Below are positions 529 through 34,431 of a stretch of 34,431 nt of DNA, piece after piece. The DNA lies in contig JADLDZ010000110.1 of NCBI GenBank assembly GCA_020846375.1, positions 1 through 34,431 on the forward strand, read 5' to 3'. Position 1 is the stretch's first letter. Every line of letters begins with the position of its first letter. The notes beneath the pieces were generated by a model that made no database searches, was not told where the DNA came from, and was given only the letters and a program-made list of their open reading frames with translations. A program made the translations under genes and the position numbers. This DNA comes from Nitrospirales bacterium (GTDB lineage: Bacteria > Nitrospirota > Thermodesulfovibrionia > Thermodesulfovibrionales > Dissulfurispiraceae).

Positions 529-1176
529 CTACAGCGGCGCGTTCAGAGAGATCCTCACGAGGTGCCGCTCAAGGGAAGTCAGCGGAAGAGGGATGTCCCG
601 TATCTCGTACCGGGCAGACGCAGGCAGATCCTTCAACTCCTCAGAAAGCCTGGGGCCTTTGCTAGCAAGAAGGAACCCGCCTTTCTTTACGACATGCCCC
701 GCCTTTTTGATAAAATCCCCTAAGGTGAAGAGAGCTCTGGTAACCGCCATATCGAAAGAGCGGTCCCGCATCTCTTCCACCCGGGCACTGACAATTTCTA
801 CATTGTCGAGGGTAAGCACTCTTTTAAGATGCTTGAGGAACGCTGTTTTCTTCCGGGATGGCTCTATGAGAACTACGGTCAGTTCCGGCCGGACAGCCGC
901 CAGCGGCACTCCCGGAAAGCCGGCACCGCTGCCCACATCGGCAAGACTCCCGCTCCCTTCCGGGATGAAGGTGAGGTAAAGAAGCGAGTCGAGGAAATGT
1001 TTGGTGATGATATCCCTGTCGCTCTCCAGGCCGGTGAGGTTATAGGCGCGGTTCCATCGCTTCAATTCCTGAAGGTACGTAGAAAAGAGGGGGACCAGGG
1101 AATCCGCAGAACAGATACCCGGTTTCGGCCCCAGCGTGCGGAGGCCCTCCGTCAGGAGTTGCCGGACCGTCTCCAT
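529..1176 (-). CDS. rsmG: 16S rRNA (guanine527-N7)-methyltransferase RsmG (GidB)
   Basis: 215-aa ORF with the SAM-binding motif DVGSGAGFPGVPLA and a typical RsmG length. It lies immediately downstream of mnmG and overlaps it, the classical gidA-gidB arrangement. Confidence 0.9.
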   Translation of the reverse strand: METVRQLLTEGLRTLGPKPGICSADSLVPLFSTYLQELKRWNRAYNLTGLESDRDIITKHFLDSLLYLTFIPEGSGSLADVGSGAGFPGVPLAAVRPELTVVLIEPSRKKTAFLKHLKRVLTLDNVEIVSARVEEMRDRSFDMAVTRALFTLGDFIKKAGHVVKKGGFLLASKGPRLSEELKDLPASARYEIRDIPLPLTSLERHLVRISLNAPL

Positions 1177-3035
1177 TGCCTCTCCACCGCTACGAGCAGG
1201 ACCGCTACTGCTGCGGGGGTGATGCCCGGAATCCTGCTTGCCTGTCCTATGTTTTCCGGCTGTACCCGTGCCAGCTTTTCCACCACTTCCCGCGACAGTC
1301 CGGGAATCGCCTTGAAATCGAGGCCCGACGGAATCCTTTTCGACTCAAACGCATCCGCCCTCTCCGCCATTTCCACCTGCTTCCGGATATACCCTTCGTA
1401 CTTGACATGTATCTCGACAAGGCTCTCTACTTCAGGGCCGAGTTCAGAGGGGGGAGCTGCATACCGTTTGAGGAACGAATAGTGCACCTCAGGCCTCTTT
1501 AGGAGCTTTTCGAGAGTCACGTCCCCTGCCAAAGCAGAGGTGCCCAGTGCGGAGAGTCCCTCGTTCACCGCCAGGGAAGGTTTGATCCTCTCCCCCCTGA
1601 GCCTCCCTATTTCAGCCGCCAATGCCCTTTTCTTCCCGGAGTACCTCTCGTAGGCCTCCCCGGAAACGAGGCCAAGGGCATAGCCCTTTTCAGAGAGCCT
1701 GAAATCGGCATTATCATGCCGGAGGAGCAGACGGTATTCCGCGCGTGACGTGAACATCCGGTACGGTTCACTCGTCCCCTTTGTCACCAGGTCGTCGATC
1801 AGCACGCCGATGTACGCCTCGTCGCGCTTAAGGAGCAGGGGAGGGCAGCCCTTCAGCTTCATGGCTGCATTGACCCCCGCCATTAACCCTTGGGCAGCTG
1901 CCTCCTCGTACCCTGAAGTGCCATTGATCTGCCCCCCGAGGAAAAGTCCTTCCACTCCCTTTGTCTCGAGGCTATGCTTCAACTGCGACGGAAACACGAA
2001 ATCGTACTCGATTGCATAGGCCGGTCTCATGATCTCCGCATTCTCCAGGCCCTCGATGCTTCTCACCAGCCCTACCTGCACATCGTAGGGCAGGCTCGTC
2101 GAAATCCCGTTTGCATAGTACTCCGTCGTCTCCAACCCCTCCGGCTCAAGGAAAATCTGGTGGCGCTCCTTGTCGGCAAACCGCACCACCTTGTCCTCGA
2201 TGGAGGGACAGTAGCGGGGACCGACCCCTTTGATACGTCAGCTGTAAAGCGGTGACCGGTCGAGTCCCCCCCGGATTATCTCATGGGTCTTCTGATTTGT
2301 GTAGGTTATGTAACAGGGCAGTTGGGGATTCGTTATCCTCTCTGTCGAATAGGAAAAAGGGACCGGCGGATCATCGCCCCACTGCGGCGTTGTCCGGGAA
2401 AAATCGATGCTCCGCGAATCCAGCCGCGGAGGCGTGCCCGTCTTCAGCCTCCCCATTTCGAGTCCCAGCTCACGCAGGGAGTCCGACAGACCGATGGAGG
2501 GAAACTCACCCGCCCTCCCGGCCTGGAAGTTCTCGAGACCGATATGGATCAGCCCCTTGAGAAAGGTGCCCGTGGTGACGACAACAGCCCTTGCCGCATA
2601 GAAGACCCCGAGGGAGGAGACCACCCCCTTCACCGTGCCGCCTTCTGCCACGATCCTCTCGACCATCCCCTGCTTGATAACGAGGCGCTCCTGCCTCTCC
2701 AAGGAACGGCGCATCGCCCGCTTGTAGAGCATCCTGTCGATCTGTGCCCGCAAGGACCATACTGCGGGACCCTTGGAGAGGTTCAGCATTCTGAACTGTA
2801 TTCCCGCCTGATCGGTCACCTTCGCCATCTCCCCCCCGAGGGCGTCGATCTCGCGGACGAGGTGTCCTTTGGCGAGTCCCCCAACCGCGGGGTTGCAGGA
2901 GAGATGGGCAATGGTATCGAGGTTGATGGTAAAAAGGCAGGTCTCCATTCCGAGGCGGGCAGCAGAAAGAGCGGCCTCGCACCCGGCATGGCCGGCACCG
3001 ACGACAATCACGTCATAATCTTGCTCTTTAAACAT
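1152..3035 (-). pseudogene. mnmG: tRNA uridine-5-carboxymethylaminomethyl modification enzyme MnmG (GidA), interrupted by one in-frame TGA at 2238-2240
   Basis: The N-terminal ORF carries MFKEQDYDVIVVGAGHAGCEAA (FAD-binding). The C-terminal ORF carries VRFADKERHQIFLEPEG...GQINGTSGYEEAAAQG. Both ORFs are in the same frame. Reading across the gap gives [28 protein letters not shown], which is colinear with E. coli [25 protein letters not shown]. The start is taken at the ATG at 3035. Confidence 0.9.
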
Positions 3036-4638
3036 GAACCTATTTATTATAGCATTAATGAACATCCCGGTATTCGAACACACGGTCGCTCCCCTCCGCT
3101 CCCGTATCCGCAATGAATCAGAATCCCTACAGAACGTCGCCCATCTGATCAAATACGATCCCGGGCTGTATTCCTCCCTTCTCCAGTTCATTAACGGACC
3201 GGCAGGGAGAAGCGAAGTGAGCACGGTATCCCAGGCCATCTCCCTTCTTGGTGCAGAGAAAGTGGAGCGGCATATTCTTCAACAGGATTCTTTCCTGGAT
3301 TCCTCCTTCCTCTTCTTCTGGTGCTATACGGTGCTGGCAGGGGAGACAGCGGCCGCCCTCAACAGAAGGGCGGATATTGCCGGAGAGGGGGAGGCTTTTT
3401 TTGTCGGCATCCTCCCTTCCGTCGGGATGCTCCTGGTGCTGGGGGAAGAGGTATCGTACGGAAAAGTGCTCGATATTCTTCTGAAGGTCCCCACGGAAGA
3501 TAAGCTCTTTATCGAGGACAGGCTTTTCACGACAAACCACCTGAAACAGCTCGGAGAACGGCTGCCGCTCCCGAAGATATACCGTGACACGATCAGCATG
3601 ACGAGATTCTTCTTTACCCCGGAAGGGCAGCAGGCGTCTTCCCCGGAAGACCCGGCGCGGTATTCCGTTGCCCATGCTTCGCTGCAGCTCTACCGCCTGA
3701 TGGAAGCCAGTGCGTCCGCTGCCCGTTGTTTAGTTTTCCCCCTGGTGGCGGAAGCACAGGAAAAATTCAAGGAATTGGCAAAGAGATATTTCAGAATTCC
3801 TGAAAGCGAGGTCGAGGAACTGCTGGCGGACAGCATCGAGCGCTTCGAAGAGGTCTGCAGGGAGTTCGGCATACAGGAGGAGACAGAGACACTCCTTTCG
3901 CTGCCGGAGAGAGCCGAAGCTCCCAGGATTACCTTTCTCACGGTCTCTGAAAGGATAAAGGCAGCACTGAGTGAGGTGGAGGCAGCAAACCGGATGGAGC
4001 GGAATATAGTGCTCCATGGAGAAACAGGAACAGGGAAAAGGTTGTTGGCAGTGGCACTCCATCGCCGCTCCGACAACCCGCGAAGGAATAAGCCTTTCCT
4101 TTCCTACCACTGCAGAACCCTGGACAGTGAAATGTTCGAAATAGAGCTCTTCGGGGCGAAGGGAGGGTTCCTGGGCATCGAAAAGCATAAAGGCGCGCTG
4201 GAAATGGCGAACGGAGGAAGTATTCTCCTGAAGGATATCGATGCCCTCCCCCTTCCTTTGCAGGAAAAGCTCGCGGAGGTTTTCAGCAAGGATGAATTTT
4301 ACAAGATCGGGGAGATGCGCCCTGCAGCATTCGACATCCGTTTTTTTCTCACCTCCCGGAAGAATATCATCCAGGAGGCGAAAAAGGGAAATTTTTCAGT
4401 ACGCCTCCTGGAGGCGCTCGGGCCTGTCAGCATGCACATTCCCCCGCTTCGCGAGCGGCGGCAGGACATCGGACTCATTGCTGACGGCATCATTGAGAAG
4501 TATGATCTCTTCATCAGAGACCCCGCCCTTCGGCTCGGACTGAACGAGTACTACGAGAAAGATCCCTTCCCCGGCAATCTGAAGAGCCTGAAGCGGCTTC
4601 TATGGTATCTCTCTGCCAAACACCGCCTTATAGCGTAG
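3034..4638 (+). CDS. HDOD-domain protein fused to a degenerate sigma54-interaction (AAA+) domain, with no C-terminal HTH
   Basis: The N-terminus (LQNVAHLIKYDPGLYSSLLQFINGP...VSQAISLLGAEKV) looks like an HDOD domain. The C-terminal half has Walker A GETGTGKR and PPLRERRQDI. The GAFTGA loop reads GGFLGI and Walker B reads LLKDID rather than the usual LFLDEI. The start may instead be the ATG at 3058. Confidence 0.7.
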   Translation: MNLFIIALMNIPVFEHTVAPLRSRIRNESESLQNVAHLIKYDPGLYSSLLQFINGPAGRSEVSTVSQAISLLGAEKVERHILQQDSFLDSSFLFFWCYTVLAGETAAALNRRADIAGEGEAFFVGILPSVGMLLVLGEEVSYGKVLDILLKVPTEDKLFIEDRLFTTNHLKQLGERLPLPKIYRDTISMTRFFFTPEGQQASSPEDPARYSVAHASLQLYRLMEASASAARCLVFPLVAEAQEKFKELAKRYFRIPESEVEELLADSIERFEEVCREFGIQEETETLLSLPERAEAPRITFLTVSERIKAALSEVEAANRMERNIVLHGETGTGKRLLAVALHRRSDNPRRNKPFLSYHCRTLDSEMFEIELFGAKGGFLGIEKHKGALEMANGGSILLKDIDALPLPLQEKLAEVFSKDEFYKIGEMRPAAFDIRFFLTSRKNIIQEAKKGNFSVRLLEALGPVSMHIPPLRERRQDIGLIADGIIEKYDLFIRDPALRLGLNEYYEKDPFPGNLKSLKRLLWYLSAKHRLIA

Positions 4639-18979: not shown

Positions 18980-19055
18980 TCCCGGGTAGCTCAGCTGGCA
19001 GAGCAGGTGGCTGTTAACCACCCTGTCGGGGGTTCGAGTCCCTCCCCGGGAGCCA
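18980..19055 (+). tRNA. tRNA-Asn (anticodon GTT), CCA encoded
   Basis: Hand-folded cloverleaf. The acceptor stem pairs TCCCGGG with CCCGGGA. The D-arm is GCTC/GAGC. The anticodon stem pairs GGTGG with CCACC, with loop CTGTTAA. The T-arm is GGGGG-TTCGAGT-CCCTC. The discriminator is G, followed by CCA. Confidence 0.95.
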
Positions 19056-20997: not shown

Positions 20998-21208
20998 ATG
21001 GAAGATCGATGACTTTCCGTAGATGAGATCGCGGCCTATCTCGGCATCAAGCGGGATGCGGTCTACAAAATGGATATCTGAAAAGCAGATGCCGGCGCAC
21101 CGGTTGGGCCGCCTCTGGAAATTCCGCAAGGAAGAGGTGGACGAGTGGGTAAAGACAGGGGGAGCAGCGGAGTCCGTTTCTCAGAATTCGGATACGGGGA
21201 AGAAATGA
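20998..21208 (+). pseudogene. Excisionase/AlpA-type (HTH_17-like) DNA-binding protein, disrupted by an in-frame TGA and a +1 frameshift
   Basis: It reads MEDR-TGA(21010-21012)-LSVDEIAAYLGIKRDAVYK. An extra A in the run at 21067-21070 then shifts the frame into WISEKQMPAHRLGRLWKFRKEEVDEWVKTGGA. Confidence 0.7.
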
Positions 21209-22701
21209 TGAATGTTCTGCTGACATTTACAGGATTTCATGACCCTTATTTCAAGGGATTGGTTGACCAGGAGGAACAGCCTGGACCCATCCTTTCCCTC
21301 CTATCCACACGCTCTTTCGATCATATATTTCTCTTCGATACCCCAAGCACGCAGCGGGTTACCGGGGAAACAAAGGACGCTATCAAGAAGCTCCATCACA
21401 GGAGCGAGGTTCACGTTCTCGAAATCAACCTTGCCGATCCGACGAATTACCAAGAGATATTCAGGGGGCTCAAAGCTCATCTCCATCGTATCATTGAGGA
21501 TTTTGCTTCAGCACGCTTCTTTGTCGCAGTCGCGTCGGGAACGCCCCATATGCATGCCTGCTGGGTTCTCCTTACGGCCTCCGGCGAAATTCCCGCCCGC
21601 ATCCTCCATGTGCGACCACCGCATTTTGTGACAAAACAACACCCGCTCGTGACCGAGGTGGATTTGTCCTCGCATGAGTTCCCTACCGTCAGGTTCCAGG
21701 ATGTATCGATTCCTGTTGAAGAGAGCCAAGCCGATGTCGATTCCGTCAGAGTGCAGCTTGGCATTGTGGGAGATCACTCCGCGATGCAGCGTTCACTCGA
21801 GTTGGGTGCGATGCTGGCTCCATCACAGGCCCCGGTCCTCATCTTTGGCGAGACAGGGACCGGCAAGGAGCTATTCGCACGGTACATTCACCGATTGAGT
21901 GGAAGGCCGCGAGAGATCTTTGTCGCTGTAAATTGTGCAGCAATTCCAGAAGACCTTGTCGAAAGCCTGCTATTCGGTCACAAGAAAGGAGCCTTTACTG
22001 GCGCGATCAACGACCAGGTTGGGAAGTTCGATACGGCGGATAAAGGGACCCTTTTCCTTGATGAGCTCGGAGAGCTTCCCATACCCACACAGGCCAAGTT
22101 GCTGAGAGTTCTGCAAGATGGACTGGTGGAGCCGATTGGACAAGCCAAGGCGCATAAGGTTGACGTGCGGATTGTGGGTGCAACGAATCGGGACTTACGC
22201 AAGCTGGTGAGGCAAGGTAAATTCCGCGAAGATCTTTTTTATAGGCTCAACGTCGGCGAAATCAAACTTCCTCCGCTCCGTGAAAGACGCTCTGACATTC
22301 CCAAACTGGCGCTTCACATTCTCGACAGGTTGAATGGCTCTTTGCGACGACCCAAGAGGTTGTCGGCGGAAGCCTTGTCCAGGCTGCAATCTCACAACTG
22401 GGCGGGGAATGTTCGCGATTTAGAAAACGTCATCGAGAGGTCTGTTCGTCTTTGCCGCAATGATGTTTTGGACGCAGACGACCTCCTAATCACGGAACCG
22501 GTCACCTACGCGGACCCACTGGATGCACTTCCCGAGCCCTACGAGGGATTCTCATTGGATGAGTTTCTCGGGAGCGCTCGGAAGCAAATGATTCTCCGGG
22601 CGCTTGAAGCAGCCAACGGCAACCAAAGCCAAGCGGCTCGAATGCTTGGGATCACGCCGCAGGCGGTGCATAAGTTCTTGCAATCGAGACCAAAGACTTA
22701 A
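21205..22701 (+). CDS. RtcR-family sigma54-dependent transcriptional activator (N-terminal CARF-like domain + AAA+ + Fis-type HTH)
   Basis: The N-terminal segment LEINLADPTNYQEIF...VAVASGTPHMHACWVLLTASGEIPARILHVRPP is colinear with E. coli RtcR VEIELHNPWDFEEVY...IHITTGTHVAQICWFLLAEARYLPARLIQSSPP. Walker A (GETGTGKE), GAFTGA, Walker B (LFLDELGEL) and FREDLFYRL are intact. The C-terminal HTH is QSQAARMLGITPQAVHKFL. Confidence 0.8.
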   Translation: MMNVLLTFTGFHDPYFKGLVDQEEQPGPILSLLSTRSFDHIFLFDTPSTQRVTGETKDAIKKLHHRSEVHVLEINLADPTNYQEIFRGLKAHLHRIIEDFASARFFVAVASGTPHMHACWVLLTASGEIPARILHVRPPHFVTKQHPLVTEVDLSSHEFPTVRFQDVSIPVEESQADVDSVRVQLGIVGDHSAMQRSLELGAMLAPSQAPVLIFGETGTGKELFARYIHRLSGRPREIFVAVNCAAIPEDLVESLLFGHKKGAFTGAINDQVGKFDTADKGTLFLDELGELPIPTQAKLLRVLQDGLVEPIGQAKAHKVDVRIVGATNRDLRKLVRQGKFREDLFYRLNVGEIKLPPLRERRSDIPKLALHILDRLNGSLRRPKRLSAEALSRLQSHNWAGNVRDLENVIERSVRLCRNDVLDADDLLITEPVTYADPLDALPEPYEGFSLDEFLGSARKQMILRALEAANGNQSQAARMLGITPQAVHKFLQSRPKT

Positions 22702-22714
22702 ACCATGGTTTAAG
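22697..22714. promoter_or_regulatory. Perfect 18-bp palindrome CTTAAACCATGGTTTAAG, candidate enhancer (UAS) site 1
   Basis: The sequence is self-complementary and overlaps the stop codon of the RtcR-like gene. It shares the core TTmAACC-N2-GGTTkAA with site 2. Confidence 0.55.
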
Positions 22715-22718
22715 ATGT

Positions 22719-22734
22719 TTCAACCTGGGTTGAA
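22719..22734. promoter_or_regulatory. Palindrome TTCAACC-TG-GGTTGAA, candidate enhancer (UAS) site 2
   Basis: It has 7-bp perfect arms. Its centre is 21 bp from the centre of site 1 and about 87 bp upstream of the -24 GG. Confidence 0.55.
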
Positions 22735-22811
22735 GGATAAAATGATGTCAGGACTAACGACAAGGATACTAACACTTTTAATTACAACGGGTTGCCGCTC
22801 GTTCCGGGAAG

Positions 22812-22827
22812 TGGCATGGGCTTTGCT
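22812..22827 (+). promoter_or_regulatory. Sigma54 (-24/-12) promoter
   Basis: TGGCAT-GGGCT-TTGCT compared with the consensus TGGCAC-N5-TTGCW. An AAAGGAG Shine-Dalgarno sequence and the ATG at 22882 follow about 45 nt downstream of the predicted start site. Confidence 0.7.
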
Positions 22828-22881
22828 TCCTATCGGACGCAGACAGACCGAGCAAGGGTCCGAAACCAGAAAGGAGCGGCC

Positions 22882-23166
22882 ATGCCAACATTTACGGTCA
22901 CATCAATCATCGACGGAGATACTTTTGAGGTCCACCCCCTATGGAAATGGAACGGTGAGGCGGGTACCCGAGTCCGCCCGGCGGGCTACGATGCCCCGGA
23001 GCTTCACGCATATGGAGGCCAAGCGGCTAAGGACAAGTTGTCAAAGCTCATATGTGCGGGGCAAGTCGAACTCCGGACGGCCTACAAGATCGACCGAGGA
23101 CGCTTGGTCTGCGAAGTTTTTTTCAGAAACACGAATCTTGCGGATTACTTTCCCGAGTGGCAGTGA
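22882..23166 (+). CDS. Small thermonuclease (SNase)-like protein
   Basis: 94 aa. IIDGDTFEV...RVRPAGYDAPEL...GQAAKDKL...DRGRLVCEV follows the SNase pattern DGDT...RLxGIDAPE...G.eA...D.YGR.L. Confidence 0.65.
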   Translation: MPTFTVTSIIDGDTFEVHPLWKWNGEAGTRVRPAGYDAPELHAYGGQAAKDKLSKLICAGQVELRTAYKIDRGRLVCEVFFRNTNLADYFPEWQ

Positions 23167-23193: not shown

Positions 23194-25473
23194 GTGAAGG
23201 ATTATTCGACTGAAGCAGATGCGAGGATTGTCATCGACGATCTGCTCTGCCAAGCGGGATGGGACCCCGCCGACAAGTCACAGGTGCTCACCGAGGTTTC
23301 TATTCGTGACACATCATGGGTGATCTCTGATCCCGTGGCTCCCTATGGATACAAACCCAGCCGGAAAACGAAAGACGGTGATGAGATACCAACCGGTCGC
23401 GCTGACTATGTCTTGATGGACCGGAACGGCCGCCCGCTTGCCATCATAGAGGCAAAGCGCACGGCCATAGAGCCATATACGGCCAAACAACAGGCGCTGC
23501 CATATGCCAAAAAAATCGGATCGCCGTTCATCTTTCTTACGAATGGCGAACTCATCTATTTCTGGGACTACGGCAACGACGACGCCCGGATCGTAAATTC
23601 CTTCTTTTCCCGCCGCGACCTTGAGCGATTGGTGGAGATGCGCACCACCCGCAAGCCGCTCGCTACAATAGAAATCCCAGAGTATTACCTGCGCCAAGGC
23701 GAGACCCGGCAGGTGCGGCCCTACCAGAGTGACACCATGCAGGCTCTGGACCACGCTGTGGAGCTCGGCAAGCGCCGTTTTCTGATTGAACTACCCACCG
23801 GCACAGGCAAGACGGATCTCGTCTCCATATATATCAAGCGGCTCATCCAGGCCGGACGCGCCGAGCGCATTTTGTTCCTGGTAGACAGGGAGCAGCTTGC
23901 CAAACAGGCGCTCGAAGCCATTCAAGACATTCTAAACCAATACAGCAGCTACTGGTTGCGCCCAGGCATGGTTCGGCAGGAACAACAGATTACGGTCTGT
24001 CTGCTTCAGACGATGATCAGCCGTTACACGGAATTCACCAGTGGCTATTTTGACGTGCTCATAGCCGACGAATGCCACCGGTCCATCTATGGCTCCTGGC
24101 AGACCGCGCTTACGCATTTTGATGCGCTTCACATAGGACTGACTGCAACACCCTCGGCCTATATCGAGCGGAACACCTTCCAATTCTATCAGTGCCACGA
24201 CGGCCAGCCGGATTTCGCCTTTCCGATCCTGCAGGCGTTTCGGGACGGTTTTCTGGTGCCCTACAAATTTGCCACCGGCATCACTCAAATCCTTGCTGAA
24301 GGTGCGGAGGTCGATGAACAAACATACGACCCGTCCGAATTTGAACGCAAATGGACGAACGAAGACTCCAACAAGAAAATGATGCAGGAGTTCGACCGGC
24401 TCGCCTGGGAGAACTTCAAAGAGTTGGCTCCCGGTCAAAAGACCGGACCTGGCAAGACCATCGTTTTTGCCATCACCAAGCACCATGCCGCAAGGCTGGC
24501 TCATTTCCTGAACGAATTACATCCTGAACTCAAGGGGCAGTACGCTGAGGTTATCACCAGCGACGTTGCGGACGCCGACGATCTCATCCGCAAGTTCAAA
24601 CGCGAGGAGTATCCGCAGGTTGCCGTCAGCGTCGGCATGCTCGATACCGGTTTCGACTGCCGGGAAGTGCTCCACCTGGTAATGTGCCGCCGGGTGCGCA
24701 GTCCCATCCTCTACCAACAGATGCGGGGTCGCGGAACGCGCACGGCAGATCATATCCAGAAGCGAAAATTCGTCATCTATGATTTCTTCGGCAACCACGA
24801 CTACTTCAACGATAGCGATACCGACATCTTCACCGGCATCGGTCGCGGACATGCTCCTGGCGGCGAACGCAAACCACCCAAACCGCCAGGCGACCTTGTC
24901 GAGCTTGGCCTCGAGGACGAGTGGCTTCACGCGGTTACCTATGTCGAGGTGGGGCCGGAGGGTGAGCGAGTCGACAAGCGCGACTATGTCACCAATTGGG
25001 AGACCAGCGTTCAATCTGCCGTGAAGGATGACCCGATCATCCAGAAGGTGCGGCGAGGAGAATTACTCACCGAAGACGAGGAAAAGGCGCTGGCTGACCG
25101 ATTAAACCGGCCGGAGATGTATTTCAACGAGGAGAACCTTCGCAGGGCTTACCGACAGCCGGGTGGCAACCTAATCGATTTTATTAAGGCCGCTCTTGGC
25201 AGCCTCAAGATAAAACCCCGCGAAGAAGAATTGACCGAGAATTTCCAGGCGTGGCTGGTCGCAAAATCGATCACACCCCAGCAGGCGCAGTATCTTTCAC
25301 TCCTCAAGAACCGCGGCATCGCCCGCGGCCGCATCGAGCTGGAGGATTTGTTCCAGCCGCCACTTTCCATTTTGAATGCGGCAGAGTTGGGCGTTGAGCT
25401 CTTCGGCGAGAGGGGGCTCAAGGAAATCATCCAGGATTTGAACGATTCGGTCTTCATGAAGAAGGTCGCATAA
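23194..25473 (+). CDS. hsdR: Type I restriction enzyme R subunit (HsdR)
   Basis: The N-terminal nuclease/HSDR_N region reads EADARIVIDDLLCQAGW...GRADYVLMD...AIIEAKR. SF2 motifs are ELPTGTGKT, DECHRS, LTATP and QMRGRGTR. A GTG start follows an AGGAGGAG Shine-Dalgarno sequence. Confidence 0.9.
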   Translation: MKDYSTEADARIVIDDLLCQAGWDPADKSQVLTEVSIRDTSWVISDPVAPYGYKPSRKTKDGDEIPTGRADYVLMDRNGRPLAIIEAKRTAIEPYTAKQQALPYAKKIGSPFIFLTNGELIYFWDYGNDDARIVNSFFSRRDLERLVEMRTTRKPLATIEIPEYYLRQGETRQVRPYQSDTMQALDHAVELGKRRFLIELPTGTGKTDLVSIYIKRLIQAGRAERILFLVDREQLAKQALEAIQDILNQYSSYWLRPGMVRQEQQITVCLLQTMISRYTEFTSGYFDVLIADECHRSIYGSWQTALTHFDALHIGLTATPSAYIERNTFQFYQCHDGQPDFAFPILQAFRDGFLVPYKFATGITQILAEGAEVDEQTYDPSEFERKWTNEDSNKKMMQEFDRLAWENFKELAPGQKTGPGKTIVFAITKHHAARLAHFLNELHPELKGQYAEVITSDVADADDLIRKFKREEYPQVAVSVGMLDTGFDCREVLHLVMCRRVRSPILYQQMRGRGTRTADHIQKRKFVIYDFFGNHDYFNDSDTDIFTGIGRGHAPGGERKPPKPPGDLVELGLEDEWLHAVTYVEVGPEGERVDKRDYVTNWETSVQSAVKDDPIIQKVRRGELLTEDEEKALADRLNRPEMYFNEENLRRAYRQPGGNLIDFIKAALGSLKIKPREEELTENFQAWLVAKSITPQQAQYLSLLKNRGIARGRIELEDLFQPPLSILNAAELGVELFGERGLKEIIQDLNDSVFMKKVA

Positions 25474-25482
25474 GGAGCAGCG

Positions 25483-27153
25483 ATGAACCAGGATTTGCGC
25501 AGAAAATTGAACCGGATCACCGACATCCTTTGGGCCGGCGGTGTGACCAATCCGGTTACCTATATCGAGCAGATTTCGTATCTGATTTACCTTAAGCTGC
25601 TCGACGAGGAGGAATCCAGCCGCGAGCTCAAGGCCCGGCTCATGGGAAAACAGACCAACGGTAACGGCAAACTGCTCTACCCGAAACAGGCCGAGCGTTT
25701 CCGCTGGTCCAAGTGGCGTTTCAAGAGTGGTACGGATCTGCGCGACTTCGTGCGCGACCACGTTTTTCCCTATATGGCTTCGCTGGTGAAGGAGGAGCCG
25801 CAGATCGCAGAGTATTTCCGCGACGCCGTGCTTGAGGTCGTTGACCCCAACGTGCTCAAGCAAGTGGTGGACGAGATCGACGGCATTGACTTCGCCAAGC
25901 TCGGCACCGACGTGAAGGGCGACATCTTCGAATACATGCTGACCCACCTGGGGCAGTCCGCTCTGAATGGCCAATTTCGAACGCCTCGCCAGATCCGCAC
26001 CATGATGGTCGAGATGTTGGACCCCAACCTCGGCGATACGATCTATGACCCGGCTTGCGGTACCGGCGGCTTCCTTATCGATGCTGTCGAGTACATTCTG
26101 GCCAGATACTCAACCGAGCCTCAGGAAGTACCCATCTACGGCGAGGAGTGGCTGGAAAAGCGCGCCCAATCCATCAAGGAAGCGCAGAAGGACATCCCAA
26201 CCTTGCAGACCTACCGCAAGGGACCGGGTGAAAAGATTCCCAACTGGGAGCTTTTGGAGCGCTCCATCTACGGCATCGACGTATCGCGCCAGATGATGCG
26301 GATCGCCATGATGAATCTGGTGCTACACGGCATCCGCCAGGCCAACGTTAAGCGCGCCAACACGCTATCCGATATGGGTGGTCTCAGCGAGGACGATCTG
26401 AACCGCCGCTACAAGGTGATCCTTTCCAATCCGCCCTTTGCCGGCGTCCTTCCCAAAGAGTCGATCCGTAAGGACCTGCCCACCAACTCCAAAAAGAGCG
26501 AGCTGCTCTTTCTGGGTGTGATGATGGAGGCCTTGGCGCCGGGCGGCCAGTGTGCGGTGGTTGTGCCCGAGGGGCTCCTTTTCGGTTCGACCTCGGCGCA
26601 CGTAGAACTCCGACGAAAACTCGTCGAGGATTTCGATTTACTGGCTGTGGTCTCCCTGCCTGCTGGAGTATTCAAACCCTACGCCGGAGTCAAGACCGGG
26701 GTCCTGGCCTTCCGGATGCCAGCTTCAAGCGTTAAGAAGGACAAAAAGACCAAGCATAAGGAAAAGGTCTGGTTCTACGATGTGCGTGCAGACGGTTTCG
26801 ACCCTGACAAGATTTCCGGTGGCGGCAGGCCTGAAACCCCCGAACGGAACGACATCCCTGATCTTCTCAGCAAATGGAAGGCCTGCAAGGAATCGAAGTT
26901 CTCGAATCCGCCGGGTGTCGAGGCCGGAACCCTTTTGCAACCCGGAAGCGACGAGCCGCGCTGCTGGTGGGCAACCATCAAATCTGTCGCCGAAAACGAT
27001 TACAACCTTGCTGCGGGACGCTACAAGCCTCAGATTGCTGAAAAGGCTCCGGATGATGACCCGAAGCAGCTTATTAGGGAGACACTGACGATTGAACATG
27101 AGATCGCTGGTGGTTTGGAGAGGTTGCTTCAATACATGGAGGCGGTCGAATGA
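25483..27153 (+). CDS. hsdM: Type I restriction-modification N6-adenine DNA methyltransferase (HsdM)
   Basis: An HsdM N-terminal helical domain is followed by motif I DPACGTGGFL and motif IV LSNPPFAG. Confidence 0.92.
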   Translation: MNQDLRRKLNRITDILWAGGVTNPVTYIEQISYLIYLKLLDEEESSRELKARLMGKQTNGNGKLLYPKQAERFRWSKWRFKSGTDLRDFVRDHVFPYMASLVKEEPQIAEYFRDAVLEVVDPNVLKQVVDEIDGIDFAKLGTDVKGDIFEYMLTHLGQSALNGQFRTPRQIRTMMVEMLDPNLGDTIYDPACGTGGFLIDAVEYILARYSTEPQEVPIYGEEWLEKRAQSIKEAQKDIPTLQTYRKGPGEKIPNWELLERSIYGIDVSRQMMRIAMMNLVLHGIRQANVKRANTLSDMGGLSEDDLNRRYKVILSNPPFAGVLPKESIRKDLPTNSKKSELLFLGVMMEALAPGGQCAVVVPEGLLFGSTSAHVELRRKLVEDFDLLAVVSLPAGVFKPYAGVKTGVLAFRMPASSVKKDKKTKHKEKVWFYDVRADGFDPDKISGGGRPETPERNDIPDLLSKWKACKESKFSNPPGVEAGTLLQPGSDEPRCWWATIKSVAENDYNLAAGRYKPQIAEKAPDDDPKQLIRETLTIEHEIAGGLERLLQYMEAVE

Positions 27154-29054: not shown

Positions 29055-29261
29055 ATGCCCAAGAAGCCAGAAAACCACGGCAAACCCTGGACCGACAAGC
29101 AGGTTCAGCAGTTGGAAAAACTCGTTGACCAGAACACCCCCACACGGGTGATCGGTCTCAAACTCGGACGGACGGAAGACTCGATCCGGTCCAAGGCAAG
29201 CGAAGAGGACATCTCGCTCAAGCCGACAAATCAATCACCTTACAACCGGCGCAAGAAATGA
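29055..29261 (+). CDS. Small basic protein, possible Myb/SANT- or sigma-region-4-like HTH
   Basis: 68 aa with KPWTDKQVQQLEKLVDQNTPTRVIGLKLGRTEDSIRSKA. A GGAGGTG Shine-Dalgarno sequence lies upstream. Confidence 0.45.
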   Translation: MPKKPENHGKPWTDKQVQQLEKLVDQNTPTRVIGLKLGRTEDSIRSKASEEDISLKPTNQSPYNRRKK

Positions 29262-29279: not shown

Positions 29280-30416
29280 ATGGACGACGATCTTCGACAT
29301 TTCCGGCCAGCCTACCTGAAGCTCCAGGAGGATATGGAACGCTTGAACCGCGCGCTCAAGCCGTCCTATCTGAGCGTTTATGAACGGATGGAACGGGCGC
29401 TTGAGCCGATCCGGCGTCAGCATTTGGAGATCTCACGTTCCATCGAGCTTTCCGGACTTGCGTCATCCCGTCTGGCGGAGATCGTCCAGGCCAATCAGCG
29501 TTGGCAAGATCTGATCGACCAAGCCACCGTCTCGGGCCGCGTTTTTGAGGATATCAAGCGGACGCATCAGACATGGCTCGAAGGGATCAGGCCGATGCAG
29601 GATAGCATCGAACAGCTTCAAGCAGCGGCCAAAATGTCTCTTGGCGATATGGCATATCGGGCGACTGTCGCAGAGCAGCTCTTCGCCGGAATTGACTTCG
29701 ATGCCATGCGACAAGCTATGGCATTGCCGGAGCCGGCGTTCCTGAAGTTCCAGGACGTGATCGGCAATGTGACGTCAACCTATGAGAAACTGGCCGCATC
29801 GATTCGAGTCCTTCCAGATGTGACCTATTTACCTGCGTTCGCGCTGCCCGGAGCAACGCGTGAGGTCTTCATCACTGGCTACGCTTCAGACGCGATCCGG
29901 ATTCCAGAAGAGCCGGAGGACGAGGATGATGCATCTGTCGTTCAGTTGATCGCCGAAGTGGAGCAGGAAACCTCTGGCTGTATCGGATTGCTACAGGCCG
30001 TTGATCCCGCCCTGGCCAGACCGTATATCGGCGCTCACGATGCACTTCGTGGGAGAAACGCCGATAGAGCGAGACACATTCTTTCCTCGTTGAGAGAGTT
30101 CTGGAACCACTTGCTGCGTCGCCTGGCCCCGGACAAACACGTGCTTTCATGGATATCGACGGATGATAAAGACCTTCTCCACGAGGGGCGGCCCACCCGG
30201 AGAGCGCGCGTGCTGTATGTTTGTCGCAGCCTCAACCATGAGCCTCTGACCGAGTTCGTCGTTCAAGACACGCGTGCGCTGGTGAAACTGGTGGAGTTTT
30301 TCAATCGTGTCCACGAACTCGAGCCGAAATTGACGGATGAACAGCTTCGCGCCCTCCTGCTCCGAACCGATTCTTGGCTCACGTACATTCTGCAAATTTG
30401 GGAGGGGACGAGATAA
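29280..30416 (+). CDS. Hypothetical, predominantly alpha-helical protein (378 aa)
   Basis: The ORF has a Shine-Dalgarno sequence and is tightly packed between its neighbours. The N-terminus is heptad-like and the C-terminal roughly 130 aa are helical. No catalytic motif was recognised. Confidence 0.5.
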   Translation: MDDDLRHFRPAYLKLQEDMERLNRALKPSYLSVYERMERALEPIRRQHLEISRSIELSGLASSRLAEIVQANQRWQDLIDQATVSGRVFEDIKRTHQTWLEGIRPMQDSIEQLQAAAKMSLGDMAYRATVAEQLFAGIDFDAMRQAMALPEPAFLKFQDVIGNVTSTYEKLAASIRVLPDVTYLPAFALPGATREVFITGYASDAIRIPEEPEDEDDASVVQLIAEVEQETSGCIGLLQAVDPALARPYIGAHDALRGRNADRARHILSSLREFWNHLLRRLAPDKHVLSWISTDDKDLLHEGRPTRRARVLYVCRSLNHEPLTEFVVQDTRALVKLVEFFNRVHELEPKLTDEQLRALLLRTDSWLTYILQIWEGTR

Positions 30417-30418
30417 CC

Positions 30419-32056
30419 ATGCTGACTGCTTTAAGAATCGGAAATTTTAAGGCTTTTGCCGAAACGCAACGGATTCCTATCCGTCCCTTGACACTGATTT
30501 ATGGTGCGAACAGTTCCGGAAAATCGAGCGTGCTGCACAGCATGATTCTCGCCCGTCATGCACAGGAGACGGGCAATCTGGATGTTCATCGCACCAATGT
30601 GGGTGGCGAATCGGTGGATCTGGGTGGCTTCCGCCAGTATGTCCACCGGCGTGAGGCCAATCGCCGAGTCGAGTGGGCTATGGACCTCGATACTAGTTCA
30701 TTCAAGGATCGGCTCGCGGAACTCTTCGCGCCCGTGAAGCAGGTTACGATGCGCCTCAATCTTGGCATCGGACTGGATGATCAAGACCACCCGCTCCGGG
30801 AGTCAATCCCTGAAATTCACACCTATGAACTTCTCGCCGATGGTCAGAGCCTTCTCCGGATGAGTCACCGCAGAGACGGTAAGCTTCAGCTCGACCGCTT
30901 GGATCACGAACATCCTGTATTTCGGAAAGTTATCAAGGCGATGGTCCTGCTTTCTACAACGACCGAAACGATTCACCCGGAGGACTTTGAGGGCCTTGAT
31001 GAGGCAATTGCCGAGCTTGTCCCGGAGGTGGTGGCAAAGAGTACGCAGTTTTTGCCTGACGGATTGGCAGAATCAAATGTTTCCAGCCCGGGCGGTCAGG
31101 CCACCCTTTTTTTTACAATCAGTAAAGCCCGCAGAAAAGAGGAGTTAGGCGCGGCAGTACGGTCATTCCTTCCCCGCAAGATCGACGAAATTCTAAGAGG
31201 TGTCGGGCAGGTGGTCGCAGGTGAACTATCGCGGCTCAGATACTTGGGTCCATTGCGGTCTTATCCGCCGCGCCATCTGGCCTTTTCCCAGCACCACGAT
31301 CCGAACTGGTATGCTGGCGGGGGCTACGCATGGGACGTCATTCGTCGTGACGCAACTGTTCGGAAACTGGTTAATGAATGGCTCTCCGCGCCTGACCGAC
31401 TCCAGACACCATACGAGCTTCGTATACGCCATCTTCTGACAATAGACGACCTCGACCCGGATTACACCAAAGTCATTGAAACGTTAGAACAGAGATTTAC
31501 GGGCGGCGAACCATATGATTGGGACCTTTTCGGCGAACTTTATTCTGCGCTGGAGAAAATAAAACAGAACGAGGCAAAACTCACCGAGGTTCAGGAACTC
31601 AACCTTGTCGATATGCGGAGTAATACAATTGTCAGCCACCGGGATGTGGGTATTGGTGTAAGCCAGGTTTTACCTGTACTTGTGACTTCGTATGCGTCAC
31701 AAAACCAGATTGTCGCCATCGAGCAACCGGAAATCCATTTGCACCCGGCGCTCCAGGCCGACTTGGGTGATGTGTTCATCCAATCTGCGCTTGGCCCAGG
31801 CAGGAACAGGTTCTTGATTGAGACGCATAGCGAACACTTACTTTTGCGCGTAATGCGCCGGATGCGTGAAACCAGCAACGACGAACTGCCTGAAGGAGTT
31901 CCACCTATCACTCCGAAGGACGTGTGCGTGCTGTTTGTACAGCCGAAAGGAACATCGTCGGCGGTGCGCCACCTGGAATTAGATGAAGAAGGTCAGCTCC
32001 TGGACGCGTGGCCGGGCGGCTTCTTTGAAGAAGGCTACCGGGAACGGTTTGCGTGA
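30419..32056 (+). CDS. ABC-type / AAA_15-AAA_21-like ATPase with a DUF3696-like C-terminus
   Basis: The N-terminus reads LRIGNFKAF...PLTLIYGANSSGKSS (Walker A), followed by LRYLGPLR. The signature-like motif is GIGVSQVLPV, Walker B is IVAIEQPEIHLHP and the H-loop is IETHSEH. The C-terminal motif is WPGGFFEE. The ATG lies 3 nt after the upstream TAA. Confidence 0.8.
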   Translation: MLTALRIGNFKAFAETQRIPIRPLTLIYGANSSGKSSVLHSMILARHAQETGNLDVHRTNVGGESVDLGGFRQYVHRREANRRVEWAMDLDTSSFKDRLAELFAPVKQVTMRLNLGIGLDDQDHPLRESIPEIHTYELLADGQSLLRMSHRRDGKLQLDRLDHEHPVFRKVIKAMVLLSTTTETIHPEDFEGLDEAIAELVPEVVAKSTQFLPDGLAESNVSSPGGQATLFFTISKARRKEELGAAVRSFLPRKIDEILRGVGQVVAGELSRLRYLGPLRSYPPRHLAFSQHHDPNWYAGGGYAWDVIRRDATVRKLVNEWLSAPDRLQTPYELRIRHLLTIDDLDPDYTKVIETLEQRFTGGEPYDWDLFGELYSALEKIKQNEAKLTEVQELNLVDMRSNTIVSHRDVGIGVSQVLPVLVTSYASQNQIVAIEQPEIHLHPALQADLGDVFIQSALGPGRNRFLIETHSEHLLLRVMRRMRETSNDELPEGVPPITPKDVCVLFVQPKGTSSAVRHLELDEEGQLLDAWPGGFFEEGYRERFA

Positions 32057-33048
32057 AGGAGGAGCTGCCTGTGCTTTATGAATTTGCCATGACGCCTGAC
32101 CTATTCGACGCATCCGTAGCCAACTCAGACGGCAGAGCAAGCATTATTCTGGTCGAACTTTTGCGGGGGATAGCCGAAAACGGCCTATTGGCAAACCTCC
32201 ATAAGGATCGGTGGTTACGTCATGTAACAGAGAAGCGGGCAACGACGCTTTCACCCGCACTGAAAGATAAAGTCCTTACATGTCTTTCGGTGCTGCATGA
32301 TCGGCATCGGCTGGTTCGACATCCGAAGTGCATAGCTGGCGATCCCGGCAATGATAAGGGATGGTTGAACCTGGCCTTCGATTCGCATGACCGAATTCCC
32401 CTTCACGCCATTGTCCTGAGCCAACCGTTAATAGACGGTTGCGGCCGCGAATGCGACGCCTTGGTCGAGTTCTTTGGCTCTTTGGATTCAACGCAGTGGA
32501 ACGGGCGACGGAAGAGGACATTGTCTCTGACTAAATCGGATGTCGACTACCGCGCCGCTCTTGCTCCGATATTGCGTCATGCGAAATCCCTGGCACTTAT
32601 CGACCCCTGGCTGAACTCGCATGAATCACGCTACCTCGACACGGTTACCATCTGCTCGAACGTATTGGGACAAAGAGGACATGCCAGGCTTCAAGGGCGT
32701 ATCGATATTCATGCTGAAACAGGCAAACAGAAGCCAGATGGCCGAACCGTTGCAGACCACCTCGCCGCCTGGGAACAAAAGCTTCGGCCGCTGATCCAGG
32801 AGGATCGCCATAGATTCAGGGTGTTCCTCTGGGAATCTTTACCTGGTTCTGAGTCGATGCATGACCGCTTTATCCTGACGGACCAATGTGGCATTTCTGC
32901 TCCCGGCGGACTGGATTGCCGAAGTCACTCCCATGCCAATAGAACGGACTGGAGCCTGCTTGACGAGGATGTAAGACAACGCCACTGGAACGAACACGAC
33001 CCCCCTGTGAGCCCCTTCAAGTTGCTGGGGAATAGGGAGATTTCATGA
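32053..33048 (+). CDS. Hypothetical protein with a C-terminal HxRx4D...GG.D motif (possible divergent PLD/HKD-like fold)
   Basis: The GTG start overlaps the ATPase stop (GTGA). An alternative GTG at 32071 follows an AAGGAGGAG Shine-Dalgarno sequence. The motif SMHDRFILTDQCGISAPGGLD lies at 32857-32916. Confidence 0.5.
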   Translation: MKEELPVLYEFAMTPDLFDASVANSDGRASIILVELLRGIAENGLLANLHKDRWLRHVTEKRATTLSPALKDKVLTCLSVLHDRHRLVRHPKCIAGDPGNDKGWLNLAFDSHDRIPLHAIVLSQPLIDGCGRECDALVEFFGSLDSTQWNGRRKRTLSLTKSDVDYRAALAPILRHAKSLALIDPWLNSHESRYLDTVTICSNVLGQRGHARLQGRIDIHAETGKQKPDGRTVADHLAAWEQKLRPLIQEDRHRFRVFLWESLPGSESMHDRFILTDQCGISAPGGLDCRSHSHANRTDWSLLDEDVRQRHWNEHDPPVSPFKLLGNREIS

Positions 33049-33088
33049 CGAGAGTTAGGTGCAGTCCAGCCGGAAGGTTCACAAAAAG

Positions 33089-34431
33089 ATGACTAACGAG
33101 GAAATAGCCAGATTCTTCAATAACGCGCGGCCCCACATTCAGGGCAATCCTGACCTGCGCGATCCCCAGGTCGAGGGATGGTTCCGCACGCGCCAGCATT
33201 TCCGGAACAGTTCCGAGCACGCCATCCTCCAGATTCCGGTGGGCTGCGGCAAGACCGGCCTCATGGCCCTGCTGCCTTTTGAGACCGCCCAAGGGCGGGT
33301 GCTGGTGATTGCTCCGAACCTTGAAATTCGTCGGGGCATATCCACCGCCTTCGACGTCGCTGGGCGCGAGTGCTTTTGGACCTCCACGCGTGTGTTGACC
33401 GACGTGAGTCATGGTCCCTTCACGGCCGTCTTGGATGGCCAGGACGCAAACATCCACGACTGCGATAACTCGCACATCGTGGTCACCAACATTCAGCAAC
33501 TGGCCAGCCGGGCCGACCGCTGGCTCCCGGCCTTTACCGACGGGTTCTTTGACCTGATCCTGGTAGATGAGGGGCACCACAATGTAGCCAGAAGCTGGGA
33601 GCGGGTCTTTGAGCGGTTTCCGAACGCCAAGGTCGTCAGCCTGACCGCCACGCCATTCAGAGGCGACGGACGCGAGATTGCCGGCGAGCGGGTCTATGCC
33701 TATCCGTTCCGGACCGCAATGGTTCGTGGGTACATCAAGCAGATCACCGCCGTGAACGTCGCGCCCCAGGAGATTTCCTTCACCTATCGCGGGGATGCCA
33801 GGCAGCATACCCTCGAGGAGGTCCTTCAACTCCGGGACGAGGAATGGTTCAGTCGGGGTGTGGCTCTCGCGCCAGAGTGCAACCGGTCCATCGTTGACGC
33901 CAGCATCCAGTGGCTTCAGCACCTTCGGGAGACCGGCACATTCCATCAAATGATCGCGGTCGCATGTTCGGTGGACCACGCCCGCCAGGTCCGGTCTCTT
34001 TATGCCGAGCGCGGTCTGCAGGCGCGTGAAATCCACAGCAACATGCCAGCGGAGGAAATTGAGGACGTGCTCCAGGACCTTCGCCGGGGCCGGATCGATT
34101 GCATCGTCCAGGTCCGGATGCTCGGGGAGGGATTTGATCACCCAAACCTGAGCGTGGCCGCCATCTTCCAGCCCTTCCGGTCGCTGTCGCCCTATGTCCA
34201 GTTCATCGGCAGGGTCATGCGGGTGATCCACCAGAACAACCCCCAGCACCCGGACAACCGGGGCGTGGCGGTTTCCCACGTGGGGTTGAACATCGACCGT
34301 CATTGGGAGGATTTCCGGCGGATCGACCAGGAGGACCAGGAACTCATCCAGGGCTGGCTTGAAGCGGGTGACGAGCGTCCCCCGGCCGATGAGCCGGGCC
34401 GCCGCAGACGCCTGACGCCGGACATGGTGGT
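33089..34431 (+). CDS. SF2 DEAD/DEAH-box helicase (ResIII + helicase C), 3'-truncated by the window end
   Basis: My own translation of the plus strand gives MTNEEIARFF...QIPVGCGKTG (motif I), LVDEGHH (motif II), SLTATP (motif III), IVQVRMLGEGFDHPNL and QFIGRVMR (motif VI). It is absent from the ORF track because no stop codon lies within the window. Confidence 0.8.
   Translation, partial: MTNEEIARFFNNARPHIQGNPDLRDPQVEGWFRTRQHFRNSSEHAILQIPVGCGKTGLMALLPFETAQGRVLVIAPNLEIRRGISTAFDVAGRECFWTSTRVLTDVSHGPFTAVLDGQDANIHDCDNSHIVVTNIQQLASRADRWLPAFTDGFFDLILVDEGHHNVARSWERVFERFPNAKVVSLTATPFRGDGREIAGERVYAYPFRTAMVRGYIKQITAVNVAPQEISFTYRGDARQHTLEEVLQLRDEEWFSRGVALAPECNRSIVDASIQWLQHLRETGTFHQMIAVACSVDHARQVRSLYAERGLQAREIHSNMPAEEIEDVLQDLRRGRIDCIVQVRMLGEGFDHPNLSVAAIFQPFRSLSPYVQFIGRVMRVIHQNNPQHPDNRGVAVSHVGLNIDRHWEDFRRIDQEDQELIQGWLEAGDERPPADEPGRRRRLTPDMV

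Follow-up and report, generated by a model that had tools for sequence, protein, structure and literature searches.

Menshen consists of NsnA, NsnB and NsnC (Millman 2022; PMC12065111) and is often associated with type I restriction–modification (R-M) systems (PMC12065111). NsnB is an ATP-binding cassette (ABC) ATPase with peculiar motifs: the DE dyad of Walker B is altered, the glutamine of the Q-loop is replaced by arginine and the signature SGG has become GxG, with the H-loop kept (PMC12065111). Some NsnC proteins carry an effector domain, PB-PLD1, that has an acidic residue after β2 and HDR before β5 and is similar to MIT_C and to the C-terminus of BrxL (PMC12065111). In AlphaFold3 models of NsnB4-NsnC2, two DUF3696 helices clamp the PIN-like domain (Li et al. 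2025, PMC12065111). The Menshen survey in the same paper was seeded on NsnA (PMC12065111). HEC-03 consists of a DUF3696 ABC ATPase and a PIN protein, has no NsnA, and needs both genes for phage defence (10.1101/2024.01.29.577857). Here we analysed the entire contig JADLDZ010000110.1 of a Nitrospirales bacterium (34,431 bp, the window), which ends in a type I R-M operon with four further genes behind it. Two of the four, encoding an ABC ATPase and a 325-residue protein, probably form a two-gene ATPase and predicted nuclease system of the Menshen NsnB/NsnC and HEC-03 type, without NsnA and placed on the type I R-M operon.

The four genes are successive open reading frames (ORFs) on the plus strand (Table 1). 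We refer to them as G1 (378 residues), G2 (the ABC ATPase, 545 residues), G3 (331 or 325 residues, depending on the start) and G4 (a superfamily 2 (SF2) helicase, cut at the contig end because the window is the whole contig). Each has hundreds to thousands of homologues, and we conclude that all four are real genes. The original prediction had seen defence-type genes appended to the hsd genes, which was borne out, and had taken the four as a single module. We compared 92 non-redundant related loci (L numbers below) drawn from one genome per species (21 loci), metagenomes (77 loci), exact protein look-ups and plasmids; each ratio below is over the loci in which it could be tested. The ATPase gene lay immediately 5' of G3 in 63 of 64 loci, and the exception (L112) is a remnant truncated by an insertion sequence (IS). 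G1, by contrast, stood directly before the ATPase gene in 11 of 43 loci, the same position being taken by RhuM in 8, hsdS itself in 7, DUF3800 in 5 and other genes in 12, including OLD-like ATPases, DUF2130, a Ser/Thr kinase and IS. An intact G4 followed G3 in 9 of 51 loci; a remnant of 32-70 codons was present in 10, and G4 was absent from 32. The presence of G1 and that of G4 varied independently of each other. When 113 neighbouring ORFs of 19 related loci were surveyed with Pfam, no partner recurred and DUF262 genes of the NsnA type were absent; the only DUF262-type gene seen near the pair was a complete GmrSD, which L012 and its relatives have between hsdM and hsdS.

These counts refute the four-gene module and strongly support a two-gene core: G2 and G3, whose conservation as neighbours had been singled out for checking, are the sole conserved unit among the four genes. 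That all four make up one new multi-component system of the ABC three-component (ABC-3C) or DndFGH type is highly improbable. The common strand, the short gaps, the lack of terminator-like sites between the genes and the joint occurrence of all four in at least five closely related loci (L006, L026, L027, L042 and L046) would fit such a system. But besides the independent variation of G1 and G4, relatives of G1 occur in BREX/GmrSD or stand-alone contexts and those of G4 stand alone or on conjugative elements, and the slot before the ATPase gene is elsewhere filled by the other genes listed above. Our preferred reading, in which we have good though not full confidence, is that 29280-34431 is a mosaic of three separable units, namely G1, G2 with G3, and G4. 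No terminator-like intergenic site was found between the hsd genes and the four genes. On the same reading, the stretch is the 3' part of one long, probably σ54-dependent operon in a defence island.

All three junctions had been described as coupled or nearly so. The 2-nt gap between G1 and G2 (30416/30419) and the 40-nt gap between G3 and G4 (33048/33089) stood. The GTGA overlap between G2 and G3 is probably an artefact of the ORF finder, because a strong Shine-Dalgarno (SD) sequence, AAGGAGGAG, lies at 32057-32065, 6 nt 5' of GTG 32071, most of 254 G3 homologues have 325 residues and the N-terminus MLYEF, and gene callers choose the equivalent start in the near-identical loci L026 and L027. 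G3 thus most likely starts at GTG 32071 and encodes 325 residues, and the true gap between G2 and G3 is therefore ≈ 14 nt.

In Pfam, G2 matched AAA_15 (E = 2.3e-21), AAA_21 and DUF3696 (28.7 bits; cutoff 22). The best PADLOC models were PDC-M55A (6.5e-48) and NsnB of Menshen (2.7e-44, over residues 1-538); HEC-03B matched in a partial alignment (1.9e-39) and AriA of PARIS came well behind (2e-22). The ATPases of distant pairs gave an identical ranking of models. The motifs noted beforehand (LRYLGPLR, IEQPEIHLHP, ETHSEH and WPGGFFEE) are all there, and the ABC/AAA_15 type agrees with Pfam. In 16 homologues of G2, GxNSxGKSS, YLGPLRSYPPR, DxGIGxSQ, AIEQPExHLHP, ExHSEHL and PGGFFEEG..ERF were invariant and two long inserts were variable. 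The peculiarities of NsnB recur in G2 as AIEQPE, YLGPLR, DVGIGVSQ and ETHSEH, with the motifs assigned to ABC elements by reading, without structural superposition. At the position of the Walker-B dyad, G2 has EQ where NsnB of S. silvestris has EN. Exact-sequence look-ups of G2 and G3 returned no record.

The structure of G3 was modelled with AlphaFold2 from 40 homologues, giving a predicted local distance difference test (pLDDT) score of 91.4. Foldseek placed the C-terminal half of the model in the phospholipase D (PLD) superfamily with a probability of 1.0, the matches being NucT, Nuc, PLD3/4, Zucchini and SauUSI; true phospholipases D were also in the list. D184 follows the β-strand 179-183, and H270-D-R272 precedes the strand 273-276 (numbering of the 331-residue form). 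In the model, the C-terminal domain therewith appears to carry the PB-PLD1/MIT_C signature, as matched to the published description rather than to a PB-PLD1 sequence. Family members pointed the same way: 6 of 40 matched Pfam MIT_C, 24 of 40 the C-terminus of the PADLOC BrxL model and 2 of 40 NsnC. The D, H and R stayed unchanged even among relatives of 17-22% identity in a deep alignment. The HxRx4D motif that had been read from the sequence is present as HDRFILTD; compared with the canonical PLD motif HxK(x)4D it has R in place of K, and catalysis by this domain is a prediction from the model. The N-terminal domain (residues 7-160), modelled alone, reached a pLDDT of 83. Its top Foldseek matches were PIN domains, namely Chp1 (3tix_D), VapC2 (3zvk), PINA (5f4h) and VapC11 (6a7v), all weak (E 0.1-2).

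We think it unlikely that the PLD-fold domain, instead of being a nuclease, binds lipids or hydrolyses phospholipids in the manner of MIT_C or classical PLD, so that the infected cell would be killed or arrested via its membrane. The only named sequence relatives of G3 are MIT_C and the BrxL C-terminus, true phospholipases D are among the structural matches, and the motif is HxR rather than the canonical HxK, all of which would suit a lipid effector. Yet the top structural matches include the nucleases listed above, no membrane segment or signal was seen by eye in the G3 sequence, and Li et al. read PB-PLD1 as a nuclease (PMC12065111).

The G3 family comprised 1,857 clusters at 50% identity (E ≤ 1e-3), or 924 at E ≤ 1e-10, nearly all of 300-350 residues. 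No G3 relatives were found in a scan of viral contigs, and there is therefore no sign of the pair being phage-borne. G3 was split or fragmentary in several genomes (L011, 10019-10996; L025, 10013-10386; L109; L113), and Moorella naiadis has a decayed G3 with an IS upstream. In such loci the ATPase gene, where present, was intact or split, and the pair is decaying in some lineages.

The pair is closely linked to type I R-M genes. hsdM and hsdS lay upstream of it in 36 of 37 loci and hsdR in 27 of 31. These adjoining hsd genes form one lineage (hsdM 51-96% identical), and their divergence tracks that of the pair (Spearman 0.77-0.82, the value for hsdM versus G3 identities being 0.82). In the distant loci L018-L020 and L022 the ATPase gene follows hsdS immediately, so that the insertion of cargo between hsdS and the ATPase gene looks secondary. 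The order hsdR-hsdM-hsdS-DUF3696 ATPase-G3-like was also found on a Methylocella plasmid (ATPase 31% and G3 22% identical), an Azotobacter plasmid and a Vibrio coralliilyticus plasmid, and the layout persists at about 20-30% identity. On the Vibrio plasmid it is preceded by an RtcR-like σ54 regulator, which shares 34% identity with the regulator of the window along its entire length. Searches with tblastn of the distant representatives P0505 and P0489 against plasmids gave no match. Close relatives (> 90% identity) were present in metagenome-assembled genomes assigned to Planctomycetota, Desulfobacterota and other phyla, which indicates horizontal spread. The connection to R-M suggested by the original prediction thus fits the deep linkage of the ATPase pair. 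With its fixed place directly after hsdS, the pair most likely serves that R-M system as a linked second layer, and from the linkage only we infer that it is functionally coupled to the R-M enzyme.

PrrC is a back-up that acts when the R-M enzyme is inhibited. Tentatively, the pair could likewise be a guard of the PrrC or PARIS kind: silenced by the R-M complex or monitoring it, the pair would fire when a phage anti-restriction protein (Ocr- or Stp-like) blocks the enzyme or mimics its substrate, and abortive infection would follow. The near-obligate place right after hsdS of a single hsd lineage, the co-divergence with hsdM, the retention of the layout down to ≈ 20% identity and the match of G2 to AriA are all consistent with a guard, and PrrC itself is cited as being found almost only within type I R-M. 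However, the evidence here consists of linkage, L021 has the pair without hsd genes, and other cargo has been freely inserted between hsdS and the ATPase gene, which argues against tight translational or physical coupling.

Three independent loci, L014 (between secA and lpxC), L019 and L004 (first M-S set), have the order hsdM-hsdS-ATPase-G3 and no cognate hsdR within ≈ 10 kb. Such loci would suit an alternative restriction arm, in which HsdM-HsdS provides the discrimination by sequence and methylation in place of NsnA, and target DNA that lacks methylation is attacked by the pair as the second endonuclease module, or in some genomes the sole one; Li et al. float the same idea for Menshen beside orphan methylases (PMC12065111). 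We consider this improbable: hsdR is present in 27 of 31 testable loci, the hsdR of the three loci could lie elsewhere in the genome, and an interaction of the pair with HsdM-HsdS is conjectural.

Upstream of the pair, hsdR, hsdM and hsdS lie within one operon, as is characteristic of type I R-M. The ≈ 200-residue C-terminal extension of hsdS (from ≈ 28440) matched no Pfam family. Upstream of the operon lies a gene for an RtcR-like protein (ORF-finder start, 21145) with Pfam matches to RtcR, Sigma54_activat, AAA_lid_14, HTH_8 and Cas_Csm6_CARF. It is kept upstream in L001, L006, L007, L026, L027 and many metagenome loci and is likely to be the regulator of the operon. RtcR-like regulators adjoining R-M systems have been noted in a computational study (Makarova et al. 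2014). Two palindromes, TTAAACCATGGTTTAA and TTCAACCTGGGTTGAA, at ≈ 22698-22735 precede a candidate σ54 promoter, GTGGCATGGGCTTTGCTT. A stricter regular expression for σ54 promoters missed this site, and it was confirmed by alignment instead: it is conserved in L001, L006 and L007 although the flanks diverge, and its function as a promoter is putative. Because an RtcR-like regulator is followed by palindromes and a conserved σ54-type promoter, the type I R-M operon may be σ54-inducible. The 94-residue ORF preceding hsdR is conserved in related loci and called as a gene in L001 and L026. It had no Pfam match and possibly has a staphylococcal-nuclease-like oligonucleotide/oligosaccharide-binding fold, judged by eye from RVRPAGYDAPE.

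Table 1. Features of the window from the putative regulator to the contig end
Feature	Positions	Strand	Basis
RtcR-like CARF / σ54-interaction / HTH_8 enhancer-binding protein	21205..22701	+	Pfam
Candidate σ54 promoter GTGGCATGGGCTTTGCTT (-24 GG / -12 GC)	22811..22828	+	Pattern match
94-residue ORF preceding hsdR	22882..23166	+	SD AAAGGAG and ATG conserved
hsdR, type I restriction subunit, EcoEI_R_C type	23194..25473	+	Pfam HSDR_N, ResIII, Helicase_C, EcoEI_R_C
hsdM	25483..27153	+	ORF; homologues have HsdM_N and N6_Mtase
hsdS with extra C-terminal extension of ≈ 200 residues	27150..29042	+	Pfam Methylase_S
68-residue ORF	29055..29261	+	Sequence; travels with long hsdS and G1
G1, helical N-terminal part and C-terminal pP_pnuc_1 domain	29280..30416	+	Pfam PF18165
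G2, NsnB-type ABC ATPase with C-terminal DUF3696 helix; first gene of core pair	30419..32056	+	Pfam, PADLOC
G3, 325 residues (alternative GTG 32053: 331 residues); second gene of core pair	32071..33048	+	AlphaFold2, Foldseek
G4, SF2 helicase (ResIII and Helicase_C, DEGH), truncated by contig end	33089..34431	+	Pfam

By analogy with the NsnB4-NsnC2 models and with PARIS and Septu, the pair probably works as follows. The C-terminal DUF3696 helix of G2 would clamp the PIN-like N-terminal domain of G3, whose C-terminal PLD-fold domain (D184, H270-x-R272) would be the phosphodiesterase effector. An oligomer of G2 would hold G3 in an inactive state until it senses a cue from the phage, probably via the variable inserts of G2. 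Binding or hydrolysis of ATP would then release or activate G3, and cleavage of nucleic acid would follow. Single-motif PLD nucleases dimerise to form a two-motif active site, and the effector of G3 would need to dimerise in the same way. Given the fixed place after hsdS, the R-M complex is the obvious candidate for the role of NsnA, as guardee or sensor. In a more speculative version, which we regard as rather doubtful, the R-M complex, or HsdM-HsdS alone where hsdR is absent, now serves a Menshen-type ATPase-PLD effector as its sensor in place of NsnA, and an RtcR-like CARF/σ54 switch controls the whole operon. If so, three immune layers would be integrated in one operon: blocked restriction, or an encounter of the M-S complex with unmodified DNA, would trigger the pair, and a ligand arising from the infection would induce expression.

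Several points weigh against a Menshen-like nuclease pair tied to R-M. G3 of the window itself matched no Pfam, PADLOC or NCBIfam model, which is the part of its earlier description as lacking a recognisable family that stood; the family-level matches to MIT_C and the BrxL C-terminus and the PLD-superfamily fold go beyond it. The G3 family profile had no match among PDB sequences even at E 10, and the PIN-likeness of the N-terminal domain has little statistical support (best E 0.11, probability ≤ 0.84). In the close family, 3 of 40 members have Y-D-S in place of H-D-R. MIT_C of MITD1 is a membrane-binding domain and is not known as an enzyme. The match to the σ54 pattern, taken by itself, does not exceed chance (1.73 expected). 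The pair of L021, which has no hsd genes, means that R-M is not strictly required nearby. Finally, complex formation between G2 and G3, nuclease activity, the trigger, coupling to R-M and a role in defence are inferred.

G3 nevertheless represents a large, unnamed family of effectors (PIN-like + PLD(HxR)) that escapes the present Pfam and PADLOC models, and Menshen-type ATPase-effector pairs appear to occur without the presumed sensor NsnA. The near-obligate place after hsdS, together with the conserved RtcR-like regulator, makes this a tractable case of an ABC-ATPase defence module that may be wired to classical R-M. The locus also cautions that tightly packed genes of a defence island need not be one system.

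The cargo genes differ in their relatives. G1, earlier described as a helical protein, does have a helical N-terminal part, but that description missed the C-terminal pP_pnuc_1 domain (predicted pPIWI-associating nuclease, PF18165; E 4e-21 in Pfam). G1 also matched the PADLOC model Aga_Nuclease (E 9e-8) and is a single-gene predicted nuclease, independent of the pair and variable or optional. A literature search on pP_pnuc_1 and PF18165 found nothing. G1 relatives without the pair occur at the end of a PglZ/GmrSD_N (BREX/GmrSD_N) cluster or alone beside a Schlafen-type gene. In L028-L030 (Smithellaceae), a G1 homologue (60% identity) lies 6 nt after the gene for a 612-residue protein with GmrSD_N (DUF262) only; it closes a PglZ-containing cluster, and a DUF2188 gene comes next. 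A DUF2188 gene is also found immediately 5' of a G4-type helicase gene on conjugative elements of Micrococcales (L034-L037). The long hsdS, the 68-residue ORF and G1 always occur together (the window, L006, L026/L027 and 11 loci from metagenomes) and may form a cassette. In Moorella (L011), an IS occupies the place of G1. A PIWI-domain (prokaryotic Argonaute) gene lies directly 3' of G3 in three related loci, the coordinates for the PIWI-related loci being L007 11212-13521, L055 1828-4116, L095 796-3102 and L039 2856-4613. A Deinococcus plasmid has a weak Piwi match directly 5' of an ATPase-G3-like pair. In the window, G1 has the pPIWI-associating nuclease domain, yet there is no PIWI gene in view.

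G4 is a ResIII/DEAH helicase, as originally described: Pfam assigned ResIII and Helicase_C, and DEGH is present. The complete protein has 619 residues in near-identical loci (L026), and its C-terminal 230 residues belong to no family. Among defence models, G4 matched the generic helicase parts only; the match to dnd_restrict_1 was weak (26.9 bits versus a cutoff of 600). Away from the pair, G4 relatives are carried by conjugative elements of Micrococcales or stand by themselves with a small ORF downstream, and G4, like G1, is independent, variable or optional cargo. At 10 or more loci the first 32-70 codons of G4 remain directly after G3 and the rest of the helicase gene is gone (L040, L044, L047, L049, L052, L059-L061, L073, L080, L095, L100, L101 and L115), which suggests a recurrent recombination breakpoint within the 5' end of G4. 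The region beyond the window end can be seen in L026 (13831-21137), where the 619-residue helicase is followed by an 82-residue ORF, a 1,201-residue HEPN_Swt1-SNF2 helicase, a SACS-domain protein of ≈ 1,030 residues and a 588-residue protein. In L001 and L002 the HEPN_Swt1-SNF2 module comes directly after G3. The helicase downstream on the Vibrio plasmid and the HEPN-SNF2 gene after the island were unrelated beyond generic motifs.

Elsewhere in the window, a tRNA-Asn (GTT) gene at 18980-19055, ≈ 2 kb 5' of where the defence island starts, may be a landmark of integration. On the minus strand, mnmG/gidA (1152-3239) is in two ORFs, with the N-terminal part at 2238-3239 and the C-terminal part at 1152-2189; the split reflects either a frameshift or stop (pseudogene) or else an assembly error.

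Among known systems, several were tried and set aside. ABC-3C was rejected, as G1 had no match to a middle component, has pP_pnuc_1 and precedes the ATPase gene in few of the loci, and DndFGH/SspFGH was rejected since PADLOC and NCBIfam gave no matches and the helicase fell far below the dnd_restrict_1 cutoff; the earlier analogies to both were thus unsupported in profile searches. PDC-M55 membership was rejected because the ATPase model alone matched. PARIS, Septu, Gabija, Hachiman and Shango were rejected for lack of matches to their partner domains; the original prediction had excluded these five, in agreement with PADLOC, which gave no HNH, TOPRIM or TerB partner. In PARIS (AriA-AriB), Septu and Gabija, as would be the case here, an ABC ATPase of the OLD/AAA_15 type controls a separate or fused nuclease, and G2 matches AriA. 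The effector G3, however, has a PLD fold, with no TOPRIM/DUF4435 or HNH partner; no TOPRIM or HNH domain was found in G1, G3 or G4 with Pfam and PADLOC.

PrrC/EcoprrI and RloA-RloB resemble the pair in that they combine an ABC-type ATPase with a nuclease and lie inside type I R-M loci. Their sequence relationship to G2-G3 is limited to the ABC ATPase: PrrC is a single fused ATPase-anticodon nuclease, and RloB is a Toprim protein, unlike G3. MIT_C of MITD1 and some BrxL C-termini share with G3 the variant PLD fold with an acidic residue after β2 and H-D-R. The domain contexts are unlike that of G3, as MITD1 is ESCRT-binding and BrxL is the Lon-like ATPase of BREX. No enzymatic activity is known for the MIT_C of MITD1 or the BrxL C-terminal domain.

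The nearest known relatives, Menshen NsnB/NsnC and the validated two-gene HEC-03, were missing from the list of systems considered originally. HEC-03 resembles the pair in having two genes, a DUF3696 ABC ATPase whose profile (HEC-03B) G2 matches, no NsnA, and a location embedded in another defence system. Its partner protein, in contrast, has PIN only, in 157 residues, and is described as VapC-like, whereas G3 has 325 residues and an added PLD-fold domain, in which its conserved, apparently catalytic residues lie; the host system is Hma for HEC-03 and type I R-M for the pair. The PADLOC model of the HEC-03 partner matched neither G3 nor 39 relatives nor five distant relatives.

From Menshen the pair differs in that there is no NsnA (ParB-DUF262/ParBDB) gene in the window or the related loci. 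No DUF262 or GmrSD_N domain was found in the proteins of the window. G2-G3 is therefore not a canonical member of Menshen, and the survey of Li et al., being seeded on NsnA, could not see pairs of this kind. G2 moreover exceeds the NsnB model by ≈ 200 residues and has large variable inserts, G3 was barely detected by the NsnC profile (2 of 40 members), and the pair has its fixed place after hsdS. The likenesses are nonetheless close: G2 has the ABC fold of NsnB, the DUF3696 tail and the unusual motif substitutions, G3 appears to have the architecture of NsnC, with a weakly PIN-like N-terminal domain and a C-terminal effector of the PB-PLD1 (HDR) type, and association with type I R-M is frequent in both.

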